Below, in pieces: positions 1 through 6,866 of a stretch of DNA of 64,000 nucleotides; positions within the stretch are counted from its first letter, which is position 1, and each line of letters starts with the position of its first letter. This DNA is from Candidatus Poribacteria bacterium (GTDB lineage Bacteria; Poribacteria; WGA-4E; PCPOR2b): NCBI GenBank assembly GCA_965215015.1, contig OZ244042.1, positions 2,912,001 through 2,976,000 on the forward strand. The letters are read 5' to 3'. A program made the translations under genes and the position numbers. The notes below the pieces were generated by a model that worked only from the letters and a program-made list of their open reading frames with translations, ran no database searches and was not told the origin of the DNA.

Positions 1-834
1 ATTGGTCAACTGGGTTAGTTGACCGTCTGAGAGACGGAACCTGTAGATATCCCATTTCTCACCTTCCTTCCTCAAAGCAACGAGAATTGACTTCCCATCG
101 GCGCCCCATGCGGCGGCTGTCAAATCCATTTTCGGCAGCGGCACCGGCTCACGCTTGACCACCTCACGCCTTATCGGTGCGAGTGTAGCGATAATCATGG
201 TTGTGTCTGTCACCAAAGCCCCGATGGCTTCAGCATACAGAATCTGTTTCCCATCGGGCGACCACCCGTCCACAAACATCACGGCACCGGGTCTCGGTTG
301 GCTGACCTGCCATCGCTGGGTGCCGTCGGCGTTCATCACATAGACCTGGCGTCCCTGGTCTATGACCCCCTCAAAGGTGATGTGCTTCCCATCAGGAGAC
401 CACCGAGGACGTGAGGCAAACGCCAAACGAGTCAGTTGCTTCACGTTGCTGCCATCGGTGTCCATCACATAAATGTTCAGGGCACCATCCCTGTCGCTTG
501 CAAAGGCAATCTGCTTCCCATCGGGCGACCAGTTAGGGGAGGACTCAAACGCTGGATGACGGCTCAGGTTGCGCGGGTTGCTGCCATCGGCGTCCATCAC
601 ATAAATCTCCTGATTCTCATCCCGCAGACTCGCAAAGACAATCTCGCGACCGGTGGGGGACCAGGAGCATTGAAAATCCCCTGCCTCGTTGTGTGTCAGT
701 CGGGTTTGACCTTTTCCCGTTGAACTCATCACGTAGATTTCAGAATTTCCATCCCGAGAAGCTTTAAACACGATTTTGCTGTGGATGGTGCTCGTTATCA
801 ACCAAAGGCTGATAACGAGAGCTGGGAATCGCAT
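1..834 (-). CDS. TolB-like (PD40 repeat) beta-propeller protein, copy D, truncated by window edge
   Basis: Manual translation from ATG at 834: MRFPALVISLWLITSTIHSKIVFKASRDGNSEIY...AGDFQCSWSPTGREIVF...AFESSPNWSPDGKQIAF... The frame stays open to position 1. Paralogue of the three full copies. Confidence 0.9.
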   Translation of the reverse strand, partial: MRFPALVISLWLITSTIHSKIVFKASRDGNSEIYVMSSTGKGQTRLTHNEAGDFQCSWSPTGREIVFASLRDENQEIYVMDADGSNPRNLSRHPAFESSPNWSPDGKQIAFASDRDGALNIYVMDTDGSNVKQLTRLAFASRPRWSPDGKHITFEGVIDQGRQVYVMNADGTQRWQVSQPRPGAVMFVDGWSPDGKQILYAEAIGALVTDTTMIIATLAPIRREVVKREPVPLPKMDLTAAAWGADGKSILVALRKEGEKWDIYRFRLSDGQLTQLTN

Positions 835-836
835 AA

Positions 837-983
837 CTAATCCTCTTTTGTAAATCGGACGTTTACAGCATTTACCTGTCCATCCCCCAGATGGTCATTT
901 CCGTCAAAGAGTGAAACCCGTGTATACGCTGTAATATCATATTGTACGCCCTCATCTAAATTAGCCACACTGACTCCCCGCCA
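837..983 (-). pseudogene. Orphan 3' fragment (last ~48 codons) of the 176-aa membrane protein, module D
   Basis: WRGVSVANLDEGVQYDITAYTRVSLFDGNDHLGDGQVNAVNVRFTKED; nearly identical in DNA to 4310-4456. Confidence 0.8.
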
Positions 984-1048
984 AGCTGAAAATTTTTCTG
1001 TTCGCATCAATACGAACATATAGGATTCATTCTAACTTCTCAGTGTTA

Positions 1049-1987
1049 TTATGAGTTTGACTTGATATCTCCCCACGGCTTTGGAGCCACCCCCTGTGTC
1101 GAGACCGGCAGCTGGCTATTCCATTCGTTGGGGGAGCCGTCACCCGCCGGATGATTGGTCAACTGTGTCAGTTGACCGTCTGAGAGGCGGAACCTGTAGA
1201 TATCCCATTTCTCACCCTCCTTCCTCAAAGCAACGAGAATTGACTTCCCATCGGCACCCCATGCGGCGGTTGTCGAATCCATCTTCGGCAGCGGCACCGG
1301 TTCATGCTTGACCACCTCACGCCTTATCGGTGCGAGTGTAGCGATAATCACGGTTGTGTCTGTCACCAGGCCGCCGACGGATGCCTTATACAGAATCTGT
1401 GTTCCATCGGGCGACCATCCCGCCGTAAACATCAAGGTGCCGGGTCTGGGTTGGCTGACCTGCCATCGCTGGGTGCCGTCGGCGTTCATCACATAGACCT
1501 GGCGTCCCTGGTCTATGACCCCCTCAAAGGTGATTTGCTTCCCGTCAGGAGACCACCGAGGACGTGAAGCAAACGCCAAACGAGTCAGTTGCTTCACGTT
1601 GCTGCCATCGGTGTCCATCACATAAATGTTCAGGGCTCCATCCCTATCGCTTGAAAAGGCAATCTGTTTCCCATCAGGCGCCCAGTCGGGGGAAGACTCA
1701 AATGCTGGATGACGGCTCAGGTTGTGCGGGTTGCTGCCATCGGCGTCCATCACATAAATCTCCTGATTGTCATCCCGTAGACTGACAAAGACAATCTCTC
1801 GTCCGTTGGGAGACCAATCGGGGATAAAATCCGCGGCCTCGTTGTGCGTCAACCGTGTTTGAGCTCTTCCCGTTGAACTCATCACGTAGATTTCATTGTT
1901 TCCATCCCGAGAAGACCCGAACACGATTTTGCTGTGGACTTGATTCGTGACCAGCAAAAAGCTGGTCACGAGAATTGAGAGGCGCAT
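1049..1987 (-). CDS. TolB-like beta-propeller protein, copy C
   Basis: 312 aa; signal peptide; repeated WSPDG..I.F.S.RDG..IYVM.ADG PD40 units. Confidence 0.92.
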   Translation of the reverse strand: MRLSILVTSFLLVTNQVHSKIVFGSSRDGNNEIYVMSSTGRAQTRLTHNEAADFIPDWSPNGREIVFVSLRDDNQEIYVMDADGSNPHNLSRHPAFESSPDWAPDGKQIAFSSDRDGALNIYVMDTDGSNVKQLTRLAFASRPRWSPDGKQITFEGVIDQGRQVYVMNADGTQRWQVSQPRPGTLMFTAGWSPDGTQILYKASVGGLVTDTTVIIATLAPIRREVVKHEPVPLPKMDSTTAAWGADGKSILVALRKEGEKWDIYRFRLSDGQLTQLTNHPAGDGSPNEWNSQLPVSTQGVAPKPWGDIKSNS

Positions 1988-1989
1988 CG

Positions 1990-2164
1990 CTATTCTCTCC
2001 TCTTTGTAAATCGGACGTTTACAGCATTCACCTGTCCATCCCCCAGATGGTCGTTTCCATCAAACAGCGAAATGGTCGTTTCCATCAAAGAGCGAAACCC
2101 GTGTATATGCTGTGATATCATAATCCGTGCCATTCTGTAAATTAGCAACACTGACTCCTTGCCA
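1990..2164 (-). pseudogene. Degenerate orphan 3' fragment of the 176-aa gene, module C
   Basis: Variant VSVANLQNGTDYDITAYTR. A 25-bp tandem duplication (2047-2071/2072-2096) shifts the frame; ends FTKRRE. Confidence 0.75.
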
Positions 2165-2215
2165 GCCTGAAAATTTTTCTGTTCGATCAATACAAACATA
2201 TAGGATTCAGTGATA

Positions 2216-3154
2216 TTATGAGTTTGATTTGATATCCCCCCACGGCTTTGGAGCCACTCCCTGTGTCGAGACCGGCAGCTGGCTATTCCATTCGCTGGGG
2301 GAGCCGTCACCCGCCGGATGATTGGTCAACTGGGTCAGTTGACCGTCTGAGAGACGGAACCTGTAGATATCCCATTTCTCACCTTCCTTCCTCAAAGCAA
2401 CGAGAATTGACTTCCCATCGGCACCCCATGCGGCGGATGTCAAATCCATCTTCGGCAGCGGCACCGGCTCACGCTTGACCACCTCACGCCTTATCGGTGC
2501 GAGTGTGGCGATAATCATGGTTGTGTCTGTCACCAAAGCCCCGATGGCTTCAGCATACAGAATCTGTGTTCCATCGGGCGACCACCCGTCCACAAACATC
2601 ACGGCACCGGGTCTCGGTTGGCTGACCTGCCATCGCCGGGTGCCGTCGGCGTTCATCACATAGACCTGGCGTCCCTGGTCTATGACCCCCTCAAAGGTGA
2701 TACGCTTCCCGTCAGGAGACCACTGGGGGCGTGAAGCAAACGCCAAACGAGTCAGTTGTTTCACGTTGCTGCCATCGGTGTCCATCACATAAATGTTCAG
2801 GGCTCCATCCCTATCGCTTGAAAAGGCAATCTGCTTCCCATCAGGCGACCAATAGGGGGCAGCATCAAACGCCGGATGACGGCTCAGGTTGCGCGGGTTG
2901 CTGCCATCGGCGTCCATCACATAAATCTCATCGTTCCCGTCCCGGAGACTGACAAAGACAATCTCTCGTCCGTTGGGAGACCAATCGGGGGTAAAATCCG
3001 CGGCCTCGTTGTGCGTTAACCGTGTTTGACCTTTTCCCGTTGAACTCATCACGTAGATTTCAGAATTTCCATCCCGAGAGGCTTTAAACACGATTTTGCT
3101 GTGGACGGTGCTCGTTATCAACCAAAGGCTGATAACGAGAGCTGGGAATCGCAT
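2216..3154 (-). CDS. TolB-like beta-propeller protein, copy B
   Basis: 312 aa; PD40 repeats; signal peptide. Confidence 0.92.
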   Translation of the reverse strand: MRFPALVISLWLITSTVHSKIVFKASRDGNSEIYVMSSTGKGQTRLTHNEAADFTPDWSPNGREIVFVSLRDGNDEIYVMDADGSNPRNLSRHPAFDAAPYWSPDGKQIAFSSDRDGALNIYVMDTDGSNVKQLTRLAFASRPQWSPDGKRITFEGVIDQGRQVYVMNADGTRRWQVSQPRPGAVMFVDGWSPDGTQILYAEAIGALVTDTTMIIATLAPIRREVVKREPVPLPKMDLTSAAWGADGKSILVALRKEGEKWDIYRFRLSDGQLTQLTNHPAGDGSPSEWNSQLPVSTQGVAPKPWGDIKSNS

Positions 3155-3156
3155 AA

Positions 3157-3303
3157 CTAATCCTCTTTTGTAAATCGGACGTTTACAGCATTCACCTGTC
3201 CATCGCCCAGATGGTCATTTCCATCAAAGAGCGAAACCCGTGTATACGCTGTGATATCATAATCCGTGTCATCCCGTAAATTAGCAACACTGACTCCCTG
3301 CCA
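3157..3303 (-). pseudogene. Orphan 3' fragment of the 176-aa gene, module B
   Basis: WQGVSVANLRDDTDYDITAYTRVSLFDGNDHLGDGQVNAVNVRFTKED. Confidence 0.8.
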
Positions 3304-3368
3304 AGCTGAAAATTTTTCTGTTCGCATCAATACGAACATATAGGATTCATTCTAACTTCTCAGTGTTA

Positions 3369-4307
3369 TTATGAGTTTGACTTGATATCTCCCCACGGCT
3401 TTGGAGCCACTCCCTGTGTCGAGACCGGCAGCTGGCTATTCCATTCGCTGGGGAAGGTATCATTCGCCGGATGATCGGTCAACTGGGTTAGTTGACCGTC
3501 TGAGAGACGGAACCTGTAGATATCCCATTTCTCACCCGCCTTCCTCAAAGCAACAAGAATTGACTTCCCATCGGCACCCCATGCGACGGTTGTCGAATCC
3601 ATCTTCGGCAGCGGCACCGGTTCATGCTTGACCACCTCACGCCTTATCGGTGCGAGTGTAGCGATAATCACGGTTGAGTTTGTCACCAGGCCGCCAACGG
3701 ATGCCTTATACAGAATCTGTGTTCCATCGGGCGACCATCCCGACGTAAACATCAAGGTGCCGGGTCTGGGTTGGCTGACCTGCCATCGCTGGGTGCCGTC
3801 GGCGTTCATCACATAGACCTGGCGTCCCTGGTCTGTGACCCCCTCAAAGGTGATACGCTTCCCATCAGGAGACCACTGGGGACGTGAAGCAAACGCCAAA
3901 CGAGTCAGTTGCTTCACGTTGCTGCCATCGGCGTCCATCACATAAATGTTCAGGGCTCCATCCCTATCGCTTGAAAAGGCAATCTGTTTCCCATCAGGCG
4001 ACCAATAGGGGGCAGCATCAAACGCCGGATGACGGCTCAGGTTGCGCGGGTTGCTGCCATCGGCGTCCATCACATAAATCTCATCGTTCCCGTCCCGCAG
4101 ACTGACAAAGACAATCTCTTGTCCGTTGGGAGACCAATCGGGAGTAAAATCCCCTGCCTCATTGTGTGTCAGTCGTGTTTGACCTCTTCCCGTTGAACTC
4201 ATCACGTAGATTTCAGAATTTCCATCCCGAGAAGCTTTAAACACGATTTTGCTGTGGACGGTGCTCGTTATCAACCAAAGGCTGATAACGAGAGCTGGGA
4301 ATCGCAT
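3369..4307 (-). CDS. TolB-like beta-propeller protein, copy A
   Basis: 312 aa; PD40 repeats; start 2 bp after the stop of the 176-aa gene. Confidence 0.92.
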   Translation of the reverse strand: MRFPALVISLWLITSTVHSKIVFKASRDGNSEIYVMSSTGRGQTRLTHNEAGDFTPDWSPNGQEIVFVSLRDGNDEIYVMDADGSNPRNLSRHPAFDAAPYWSPDGKQIAFSSDRDGALNIYVMDADGSNVKQLTRLAFASRPQWSPDGKRITFEGVTDQGRQVYVMNADGTQRWQVSQPRPGTLMFTSGWSPDGTQILYKASVGGLVTNSTVIIATLAPIRREVVKHEPVPLPKMDSTTVAWGADGKSILVALRKAGEKWDIYRFRLSDGQLTQLTDHPANDTFPSEWNSQLPVSTQGVAPKPWGDIKSNS

Positions 4308-4309
4308 AA

Positions 4310-4840
4310 CTAATCCTCTTTTGTAAATCGGACGTTTACAGCATTCACCTGTCCATCCCCCAGATGGTCATTTCCGTCAAAGAGTGAAACCCGTGTATAC
4401 GCTGTAATATCATATTGTACGCCCTCATCTAAATTAGCCACACTGACCCCCTGCCAGCCCCAATGGTCGCTGTATCCATTTGCAGGCACATCTGGTCCGA
4501 ATTCTTCGATGATATCCTGCTTAGGGCTGCCATCTGTGTTGTAAGTATTCGTGCCGTCGGTATTGACGATAGTATGATTAAACTCATACTTCACATCGAT
4601 TGCAAAGGGGCCATTTTCGATCAGATAGTGATGGAAACTCTCCGTGCGTTGGGTTGAGCCGCCGATATACCTGAGCTGGCTCGCTGTGGCACTCCAACTG
4701 ATACCGTCAATGGTGCCGCCGTTCGGTGATCCGGGGATGTTTCTAACAATCAACACACCTGCCATCCCCAAGACCAATATGCCGAGACCTATAAACACTT
4801 TAGGGTATTTCTTTGCCAATTTCATGAATTGTTGGTTCAT
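4310..4840 (-). CDS. Hypothetical N-terminally membrane-anchored protein (176 aa)
   Basis: Basic N-terminus, hydrophobic helix VFIGLGILVLGMAGVLIV, then a polar, probably beta-rich domain. First gene of the array operon. Confidence 0.75.
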   Translation of the reverse strand: MNQQFMKLAKKYPKVFIGLGILVLGMAGVLIVRNIPGSPNGGTIDGISWSATASQLRYIGGSTQRTESFHHYLIENGPFAIDVKYEFNHTIVNTDGTNTYNTDGSPKQDIIEEFGPDVPANGYSDHWGWQGVSVANLDEGVQYDITAYTRVSLFDGNDHLGDGQVNAVNVRFTKED

Positions 4841-5012: not shown

Positions 5013-5040
5013 TTGACAACATTTGTCCATTGGGTATAAT
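5013..5040 (+). promoter_or_regulatory. Consensus sigma70 promoter
   Basis: TTGACA (5013-5018), 16 nt, TATAAT (5035-5040). Confidence 0.7.
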
Positions 5041-5588: not shown

Positions 5589-6866
5589 ATGATCGAAACG
5601 ACACTCTTTGATTTAACCTACGAAAGTCGGAAGCGTCCCCTGTTGAAACAGGTATTGGAGAGATTACGTCCAATCTACTCTACGGACGAACTGAAGGTCT
5701 TACGCATTGACAGTGAAAGTCGAGATGTTCTCTCTCTCCGTTCTGGGCGAGGATTTGTCAATCGAGATATTCTCGAAACGGTGCTCGGCAACCTATTGGA
5801 ATGTGTAGCCCCCGGTTCCCACAACGCCCCGCGTCCAGAAAATCATAAGGGCGAACTGTCGGAAGCAATCGAAGAGGTCGCGGACCAACTGTACGCGGTG
5901 ATTGCCCAATCCTTCTTGGCAGTCACCGACGAAAGCGAGTTGGAAAGCCGTGCATTGGACACAACGTTTGCGCTGCTCTGGGAGTTGCCTCGACTGAAAC
6001 AGCGCGCCCTATGGAACCGTTTTGCCTCGCTGAAAGATCCGGCGGTGTGGGATGCCTATCTGCTCCACAGTGGAGTTTCCCGTGAAAAACTTGTCGAATT
6101 GGACATCAGGGCGCAGGTAGATGAAGCCATTCTAAAACGGGAGTTCCAACCCTATCGAAATCTCTTGGACACTCTTGATTTGGCTTTCGCTTTTGACTAC
6201 CAGATGCAGTTGGTTGTCAGTACGTACCCCGGTTGGCGAGTGCTCTTCTACCACGATGTTGGCTATCTCTTAACTCGATCCGGTCCCATTAAGGGCACCA
6301 TCAATCTCTACCGAACCCCTGTACCGCTTTTACCCCGCGCGATTTCTGAACTTGGGGGCCGTTACTACCAAGCAGATCTCCACCCCGAAACACAGATTGG
6401 TGATGCTAATTTCTTGGAGCATCCCCATCGCGGCTTCACCACCGGACAAACCGGGGTTATTGGCTCTGGCTGCGTCATCTATCCGTGTACGCTTGGTGGC
6501 TTGAGTGTGAGGGTCAAACAGCGTCACCCGATTCTTGGCGACTTCGTGCAGATTGGCACGGACGCAAGTCTGCTGGGGCCGGTACGAATCGGGGACCACT
6601 CTACCGTCGGCACAAATACAGAGATCTACGGTTTTGTTGAGATAGATACCAGCTGCCATATCGGTTCTTCAGTGGTCATCGGGACCATCCGGAGCGAATC
6701 CATCAAACCGGGCGTGATTCGTCTTGGCAAGAACGTTTCGGTGGGCGACGGGACGATTATCGAAAACACCTTGGCGATAGATTTGATTATTCCGGATCAG
6801 TCAGAGATTCCCGCACGCAGCCATGTCTCTAACGATGGTTTTGGACATCCCAGATATGTCGCATAA
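5589..6866 (+). CDS. Divergent serine O-acetyltransferase-like protein (left-handed beta-helix) with long N-terminal extension
   Basis: C-half follows the CysE pattern: YPGW..LFYH, DLHPETQIG..NFLEH, TLGG...QRHPILGDFVQIG..ASLLGPVRIGD. Confidence 0.7.
   Translation: MIETTLFDLTYESRKRPLLKQVLERLRPIYSTDELKVLRIDSESRDVLSLRSGRGFVNRDILETVLGNLLECVAPGSHNAPRPENHKGELSEAIEEVADQLYAVIAQSFLAVTDESELESRALDTTFALLWELPRLKQRALWNRFASLKDPAVWDAYLLHSGVSREKLVELDIRAQVDEAILKREFQPYRNLLDTLDLAFAFDYQMQLVVSTYPGWRVLFYHDVGYLLTRSGPIKGTINLYRTPVPLLPRAISELGGRYYQADLHPETQIGDANFLEHPHRGFTTGQTGVIGSGCVIYPCTLGGLSVRVKQRHPILGDFVQIGTDASLLGPVRIGDHSTVGTNTEIYGFVEIDTSCHIGSSVVIGTIRSESIKPGVIRLGKNVSVGDGTIIENTLAIDLIIPDQSEIPARSHVSNDGFGHPRYVA

Follow-up and report, generated by a model that had tools for sequence, protein, structure and literature searches.

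In the bab genes of Helicobacter pylori and the opa genes of Neisseria, tandem paralogues encoding outer-membrane adhesins undergo unequal crossing-over and gene conversion, and the adhesins show phenotypic switching. Antigenic variation systems such as pilE/pilS and vlsE combine one expression site with truncated, promoterless donor cassettes. Among propeller-repeat proteins, a report on Podospora anserina (PMC2873952) describes HNWD/HET WD-repeat non-self recognition genes that diversify by recombination between paralogous repeats, and an account of domain enrichment in sponge microbiomes (PMC5735121) includes the "TolB-like beta propeller" and WD40 domains. The locus described here lies in a 64,000-nucleotide window (G000:C1:2912001-2976000) of a Poribacteria genome that consists of a single contig of 5,943,281 bp. 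On the minus strand of this window, a gene for a 176-aa protein with a predicted membrane helix, which we call the anchor gene, is followed by four complete genes for 312-aa TolB-like (PD40) beta-propeller proteins, named A to D, that have exchanged segments with each other. In the literature on Poribacteria TolB/WD40 propellers and on gene conversion among PD40 tandem genes, we found no description of such arrays, of an anchor partner or of a mosaic structure.

Mosaic structure of the tandem array

Each propeller gene carries a front block and a rear block, both of which occur in two versions. Front type 1 (motifs LRDGNDE, AFDAAPYW and RPQW) is present in A and B and front type 2 (LRD[D/E]NQE, AFESSP[D/N]W and RPRW) in C and D; rear X is present in A and C and rear Y in B and D. 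A first-pass annotation of the window had read the four genes as combinations of these two blocks, with A=1X, B=1Y, C=2X and D=2Y. Its coordinates, motifs and assignments agree with the list of open reading frames (ORFs), in which D is cut by the window edge, and both of its blocks are correct. It overlooked a further partition of the copies (AD/BC), which occupies three tracts, as well as two tracts that are private to C and to D.

In an alignment of the four ~1.15-kb units, 64 sites divide the copies two against two: 27 of these group the copies as AC/BD, 23 as AD/BC and 14 as AB/CD. Singleton sites number 13 in A, 11 in B, 42 in C and 34 in D, seven sites are multi-state and the copies differ from each other by 7-11%. 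Along the unit, the AD/BC partition holds 11 sites in an upstream remnant of the anchor gene (described below) and five sites in codons 45-52. It gives way to AB/CD, with ten sites in codons 72-101 and three further sites up to codon 151, then to AC/BD, with 24 sites in codons 180-257, and returns in codons 273-284 with six sites; the remaining five sites are isolated and of various partitions. The switch from AB/CD to AC/BD is thus confined to the stretch from codon 151 to codon 180 and lies within the FEGV.DQGRQVYVMNADG segment, in which the first-pass annotation had predicted a breakpoint. The tract private to C comprises 37 sites and extends from 14 nt upstream of the start codon, through the signal peptide, to approximately codon 31, while that private to D comprises 13 sites in codons 55-68.

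The clustering of these sites was compared with that expected by chance. The 64 informative sites form 12 runs, compared with a mean of 42.2 and a minimum of 27 in 10,000 permutations of site order, none of which was as low. Similarity between neighbouring sites is 0.825, compared with 0.345 in the permuted data (maximum 0.571). A score of the pairwise homoplasy index (PHI) type deviates from the permuted values by z = -14 to -18 (0 of 10,000 permutations as low), the Hudson-Kaplan minimum number of recombination events (Rm) is 11, and for the coding sequence alone (52 informative sites) none of 2000 permutations was as low. Tight runs of all three two-against-two groupings make it certain that the copies have recombined: the four copies are shown to have exchanged segments with each other. 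The earlier claim that recombination or gene conversion is required is thereby confirmed, using the kind of test that had been proposed for it (alignment of all copies, including D beyond the window edge, followed by a PHI-type test), in which the clustering is significant. The same cannot be said of the suggestion that a complete 2x2 set of blocks is the sign of a selected combinatorial repertoire. By simple arithmetic, four of the six possible assortments of two fronts and two rears of each type yield the full set; its completeness is evidence that recombination happened, not that the combinations are selected.

Comparison of the region with itself reveals one direct repeat, extending from window position 4456 to -151, with units that are 89-92% identical. 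Copy D continues 104 nt past the window start and is whole in the genome, and there is no fifth copy. The repeat unit (1153-1164 bp) starts at codon 128 of the anchor gene and extends ~66 nt beyond the stop codon of the propeller gene. All three internal junctions have a common breakpoint and join the units as head-to-tail direct repeats, and each retains a remnant consisting of the last 49 codons of the 176-aa gene (residues 128-176); this portion of the upstream gene, carried in the unit, had been overlooked in the first-pass annotation. The stop codon of the anchor gene is located 2 nt before the start of propeller A, and a purine-rich stretch ahead of that start lies within the repeat. Because the unit begins inside the anchor gene and includes this stretch, each new copy keeps its native ribosome-binding and translation-start region. 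All four propeller genes are complete and possess a start codon, a leader and, upstream of them, the native ribosome-binding region.

A silent-cassette system of the pilE/pilS or vlsE type was also considered. The four copies do not fit it, as all are full length and have a translation-start region.

The positions of the genes, remnants and blocks are collected in Table 1.

Table 1. Features of the anchor-propeller array (window coordinates; negative positions lie before the window start)
Feature	Position	Strand	Basis
Anchor gene (176 aa), N-terminal membrane helix and beta-sandwich	4310..4840	-	ORF list
Propeller A, front type 1, rear X	3369..4307	-	ORF, 312 aa
Propeller B, front type 1, rear Y	2216..3154	-	ORF, 312 aa
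Propeller C, front type 2, rear X; private divergent leader tract ~1896-2001	1049..1987	-	ORF, 312 aa
Propeller D, front type 2, rear Y; in the genome -101..834 plus stop codon; private tract codons 55-68 (631-672)	1..834	-	312 aa
Anchor-gene remnant ahead of B; array junction at 3303/3304	3157..3303	-	
Anchor-gene remnant ahead of C; contains 25-nt tandem duplication 2047-2097	1990..2139	-	
Anchor-gene remnant ahead of D; protein 96% identical to the real gene end	837..983	-	
Front block, codons 72-101, partition AB/CD	A 4005..4094; B 2852-2941; C 1685-1774; D 532-621	-	
Interval with front/rear breakpoint, codons 152-179, copy A	3771..3854	-	
Rear block, codons 180-257, partition AC/BD	A 3537..3770; B 2384-2617; C 1217-1450; D 64-297	-	
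C-terminal tract, codons 273-284, partition AD/BC, copy A	3456..3491	-	

The B/C junction is the most altered of the three, because the remnant ahead of C carries the 25-nt tandem duplication (two copies, 96% match) and 13 nt are deleted after the stop codon of B. The junction remnants stay open on the minus strand, with frames at 837-1019 (60 aa), 3157-3339 (60 aa) and 1990-2310 (106 aa). The two 60-aa frames start at a spacer ATG and the 106-aa frame at a GTG within the end of copy B, and all of them end at the native stop codon just before the next propeller start. No terminator-like sites were found inside the array. On the minus strand upstream of the anchor gene, matches to the sigma-70 consensus reach only 9/12 positions (5019-4992 and 5001-4973). 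A perfect consensus of this type (TTGACA, 16 nt, TATAAT; 12/12) is present on the plus strand at 5013-5040, directed towards a gene for a hexapeptide-repeat protein at 5589.

Apart from this gene, the flanking genes are biosynthetic: they include menaquinone (Mqn) genes, purH (purine synthesis) and an aldo-keto reductase gene. No recombinase or mobile element was found among the flanking genes examined, diversity-generating retroelements and site-specific inversion not having been the object of a specific search. The substitutions in the blocks are of all types, and nothing suggests a dedicated diversification machinery.

The exported propellers and the anchor protein

The 312-aa protein matches the PD40 (WD40-like beta-propeller repeat) family PF07676 with 117.9 bits (gathering threshold 20.9, E-value: 1.3e-34). 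An AlphaFold2 model based on an alignment of 53 homologues (predicted local distance difference test (pLDDT) score 87.3) has 24 strands in six blades that form a closed propeller fold. In this model, the leader and the last 17 residues are disordered and the mature protein opens directly with blade strands. Foldseek matched the model to the C-terminal propeller of TolB (PDB 2W8B, 1C5K and 2HQS) with template modelling (TM) scores of 0.74-0.77 and ~20% identity. The leader begins with basic residues, continues with a hydrophobic core, ends in VHS and contains no cysteine; without a lipobox cysteine, it reads as a plain Sec-type signal and not as that of a lipoprotein. The description of these proteins as secreted propellers in the first-pass annotation is thus upheld, in the form of exported six-bladed TolB-like propellers.

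The propeller was rejected as TolB itself for three reasons. First, TIGR02800, its best NCBIfam match, scores 310.7 bits, which is below the curated cut-off of 343.15. Second, only profile positions ~200-407 are matched, and the N-terminal alpha/beta domain is missing at a length of 312 aa. Third, the neighbours examined are not tol/pal genes (there is no tolQRA-tolB-pal cluster). In the whole genome, no place reaches the TIGR02800 cut-off and every match leaves the N-terminal part of the profile uncovered; among candidate frames for TolB, a 442-aa ORF near 5293274-5294026 is the longest.

The disordered C-terminal tail (EW..L.V..Q....P..WG.IK) is conserved and ends 10 PD40 paralogues of the genome. 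Its residues W289, W305 and K309 are invariant, and they are held across the 53-sequence family alignment as well. A role for the tail as a general sorting tag was considered and rejected: a narrow motif search of the genome met it on the 10 PD40 paralogues only. No signal for surface display was found on the propellers, for which the Sec-type leader and the C-terminal tail were examined. Among the PADLOC defence models, no family was matched by the propeller and none by the anchor protein.

The genome encodes 31 full-length propeller paralogues (one of them with an in-frame stop codon) and has arrays of two to seven genes; in a tree, the four copies A-D form one clade. In a paralogue that stands singly (G000:C1:5790220-5791197), codon 2 is an in-frame TGA, and this gene is probably a pseudogene unless translation begins further downstream. 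Genomes of the genus contain 27 to 222 propeller matches each.

The anchor protein is predicted by AlphaFold2 (pLDDT 87.1) to consist of one membrane helix (residues 13-33) followed by the strands of a beta-sandwich (residues 40-173). Foldseek comparison of the sandwich with the PDB gave generic matches only, of the ApaG and arrestin type (TM 0.35-0.54). The protein has no Pfam, NCBIfam or PADLOC match, and scores in the protein atlas are at most 0.79. A profile built from 21 members found 126 clusters among 1.84 billion representatives, mostly of 150-190 aa. Homologues of the anchor gene are located directly upstream of four other propeller arrays in the same genome and directly upstream of propeller genes in 10 of 18 genomes of the same genus. 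None was found in 12 genomes of other genera with a single-sequence query, and a scan of genome contigs with the anchor protein returned no relative. The sandwich profile also matches 7 to 14 stretches in three giant proteins (P0168, P0187 and P0222; 2072-3460 aa), and the domain therefore exists as tandem repeats in very large proteins as well.

Relatives, age of the blocks and selection

Among 20 genomes of the genus, only two (G012 and G017) contain an orthologue with at least 80% identity, in one copy each. At the syntenic locus of G017, genes with 83-95% protein identity flank a single anchor gene (65%) and a single propeller gene (77-81%). Both genes are likewise present once in G012, with flanks that do not match. 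Because these relatives carry single copies, the four-copy state is specific to the present lineage. Three more alleles belong to the 90%-identity cluster of B, C and D. Two of these, P0002 and P0121, are found on one 19,079-bp contig and have a D-like first half in common, with rear Y in P0002 and rear X in P0121; the third, P0125, comes from a contig of 69,678 bp and combines a D-like sequence with rear Y. All three are exact protein mosaics of A-D segments. A scan of JGI metagenomes with an alignment of all seven alleles found distant relatives only, with a best segment of 56%.

Logan contigs (114-403 nt) of four runs from four studies were compared with one repeat unit. The A/B junction is bridged by identical 155-nt contigs without any difference in two of these runs (X1 and X5), which come from different studies, and it is bridged in run X8 with ~6% divergence. 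In run X6, the rear block is represented by two equally deep contigs (depths 22.9 and 25.3), which differ from B at 1 and 24 sites, and the front by one D-like contig at depth 46.8; no type-1 front is present. With its equal-depth rear pair and single D-like front, X6 is compatible with an array of two copies that have the same front and different rears. Relatives thus vary both in copy number (1, 2 or 4) and in the blocks that they carry, which is what the comparison of relatives and metagenome contigs suggested alongside the first-pass annotation was meant to reveal.

The blocks and the backbone of the gene differ in their divergence. In codons 105-143 (114 nt), the copies differ from each other by 1-6 nt and from outgroups by 23-30 nt. 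For the front block (105 nt), the two types are separated by 14-16 nt (A and B by 1 nt), and the distance to outgroups is 16-22 nt. In the rear block (189 nt), X and Y differ by 25-32 nt, with 5 nt within each type and 28-34 nt between X and outgroups. The D-private tract (48 nt) lies 14-15 nt from the other copies and 13 nt from outgroups. Synonymous divergence (dS) between copies follows the same pattern: the backbone gives 0.05-0.18, rear X against Y 0.24, the two front types 0.35-0.46 and the C leader against the other leaders 0.6, compared with ~0.7 for the whole gene between the copies and G017.

The alternative versions are also met at this locus in other species. Copy C has a leader similar to the one in G017, whereas the leader shared by A, B and D is closer to the G012 version (7 differences in 57 nt). 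The alternative motifs AFESSP/AFDAAP and LRDENQE/LRDGNDE recur in varied combinations in the orthologues P0003-P0010, and the B/C-type remnant is the real C-terminus, identical in protein, of an anchor protein on another contig (P0126). When 16 block sequences were compared with the whole genome using blastn, no donor above ~83% identity was found outside the array, and recent conversion from another paralogue was rejected for this reason. We lean towards the view that the divergent islands are old alternative versions of the locus that were captured by duplication and reshuffled, and did not evolve afresh in the array.

The ratio of non-synonymous to synonymous divergence (dN/dS) among the copies is 0.21-0.44 for the whole gene. 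Within the rear block, comparisons of X with the orthologues give 0.09-0.11, those of X with Y 0.56-0.65 and those inside Y 0.22. When changes were assigned to branches via outgroups (8 of the 63 codons were ambiguous and were dropped), the Y branch received 9.5 non-synonymous and 0.5 synonymous changes and the X branch 0 and 6; a site-wise count gives 11:0 for Y and 0:3 for X. On these counts the two branches are clearly different, and the fact that dN/dS afterwards fell back to a low value speaks for a change of function. As the Y ratio is not significantly above neutrality, either positive selection or relaxed constraint could account for it.

The 49 variable residues of the mature protein fall at positions that vary in the family as a whole (mean entropy 1.82 bits compared with 0.87 for the rest, Mann-Whitney p = 2e-11). 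Of the 23 residues that define the blocks, 18 map to the propeller face that carries the D-A and B-C loops. This count is suggestive only, as faces were assigned by a crude strand-register method (the PD40 profile register on a WD40 repeat protein, which is the profile's best match among solved structures, together with the WD40 strand nomenclature). Because the variation is at family-variable positions and protein change is accelerated in one block, it is plausible that the copies have diverged in function.

Explanations and comparison with known systems

Taken together, the locus is likely to represent a lineage-specific tandem amplification, with segment exchange, of the second gene of a two-gene module made up of an anchor and a Sec-exported propeller. 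The tandem amplification of a unit that brings its own translation-start region, the repeated exchange of segments and the turnover of the array among relatives are shown directly; unequal crossing-over and short-tract gene conversion are the probable processes behind the exchange. The outcome is a patchwork with a nearly identical backbone and a few divergent islands. Old allele classes may have provided the raw material, being captured side by side and then reshuffled, and rear Y probably underwent a burst of amino-acid replacement in blades 4-5 before it came under constraint again. Because of this burst and the return to constraint, the X and Y copies probably bind different things. It is conceivable, and here we are more tentative, that the propellers serve as binding proteins, periplasmic or exported, and act jointly with the anchor in the cell envelope, with the variable loop positions as the ligand surface.

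Several results weigh against parts of this reading. The functional link between anchor and propeller is drawn from gene neighbourhood alone. The linkage of blocks within each copy depends on the single-contig assembly, since no Logan contig spans front to rear, and short-read assembly could have lowered copy counts or mixed the alleles of the two other contigs. With respect to selection, dN/dS is below 1 in every pairwise comparison, the Y-branch count of 9.5:0.5 is not significantly above the neutral expectation of ~2.9:1, and two of the Y-branch replacements (codons 211 and 241) are also present in copy C. The enrichment of all variable residues on the D-A/B-C loop face (31/49 compared with a background of 140/268) is not significant (p = 0.11). 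Finally, in the other large array of the genome, which has five copies and lies near 4.94 Mb, 40% of the site pairs are incompatible, and their clustering is not significant (259 of 2000 permutations as low); three-copy arrays have no informative sites for the clustering test.

One alternative, that only two alleles are real and the mosaics are chimeric joins made during assembly, is highly improbable. It draws on the fact that public contigs do not phase the blocks and on the three extra alleles, which are exact A-D mosaics such as a graph assembler could yield. The first-pass annotation had itself named two real alleles as the result that would overturn its reading, and this is contradicted by the private singletons of every copy: the copies are 7-11% apart with private substitutions in each, which two alleles cannot give, and no fewer than four different sequences are required to produce three partitions together with two private tracts. 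In addition, the genome is one 5,943,281-bp contig, a state that probably implies long reads spanning the 4.6 kb of the array, and the A/B junction was reproduced without difference in runs of two studies. The X6 configuration, which lacks a type-1 front, is a different real one and not a mis-assembly of this array. An old array, in which the blocks arose in place after an early duplication, conversion homogenised most of the sequence and left islands by chance, and the single-copy relatives lost copies, has more in its favour, although we regard it as rather unlikely. A backbone dS of 0.05-0.18 beside island values of 0.24-0.6 fits incomplete homogenisation, the genome holds no donor, and the X,Y,X,Y order fits the doubling of an X-Y pair, such as that seen in run X6. 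However, only one copy is present in each of the two close species that have an orthologue, the alternative motifs and the leader classes recur in single-copy orthologues of other species, and the B/C-type remnant is a living anchor-gene allele elsewhere. These observations are fitted better by allele classes circulating at the locus than by divergence within the array.

The repertoire put forward in the first-pass annotation, in which block alleles under balancing or diversifying selection are deliberately reassorted to let the cell display many binding specificities for host, kin or phage recognition, is in our opinion unlikely, and such roles, like one in immunity, are speculative. Variation does fall on family-hypervariable positions, with most block-defining residues on one inferred face, and the Y branch has its replacement burst; the same alternative motifs persist across species, different populations have different assortments, and the 31 paralogues occupy several arrays of the genome. 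Against this stand the frequency with which random assortment yields the full 2x2 set (four of six), pairwise dN/dS values that are all below 1 and a face enrichment that is not significant over all variable sites. There is also no surface-display signal on the propellers and no match to PADLOC defence models, and the flanking genes examined, which serve menaquinone and purine synthesis, include neither a recombinase nor a diversity-generating element. Another proposal, in which balancing selection maintains the islands as trans-species allele classes of a face that binds ligands, and in which they are reshuffled in arrays behind a shared anchor, is quite improbable. If it were true, the locus would be a germline-encoded combinatorial receptor set of a sponge symbiont that holds several specificities at once.

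Mosaic tandem paralogues are a well-known product of recombination and the mechanism here is ordinary. The interest of the locus lies in the family to which it belongs, since the exported TolB-like propellers of this Poribacteria genus rank with its most expanded protein families. It offers a clean, datable example of how such a family grows, in which one gene became four, old segments were recombined and one segment displays a burst of amino-acid change. It also ties the propeller family to an undescribed small anchor protein for which there is no Pfam or NCBIfam model, and its X and Y copies are natural pairs for a comparison of ligand specificity.

With periplasmic TolB of the Tol-Pal system, the propellers described here share the six-bladed PD40 fold and a Sec leader, but they have no N-terminal domain, no tol/pal neighbours and 31 paralogues in the genome. 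The bab and opa genes resemble the array in that full-length paralogues exchange short tracts, giving mosaic alleles and changes in copy number between strains; those genes encode outer-membrane adhesins of pathogens, whereas the present ones encode soluble exported propellers of an uncultured symbiont group. The account of domain enrichment in sponge microbiomes concerns the same domain class in the same kind of community. As given there, it is a matter of domain abundance only, and arrays, an anchor partner and mosaic structure do not enter into it. The HNWD/HET genes, as described in the Podospora report, are likewise propeller-repeat proteins diversified by recombination between paralogous sequences. 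In that case, however, the exchange takes place between repeats within and between fungal NLR-like genes, whereas in the Poribacteria array whole-gene tandem copies swap blocks.

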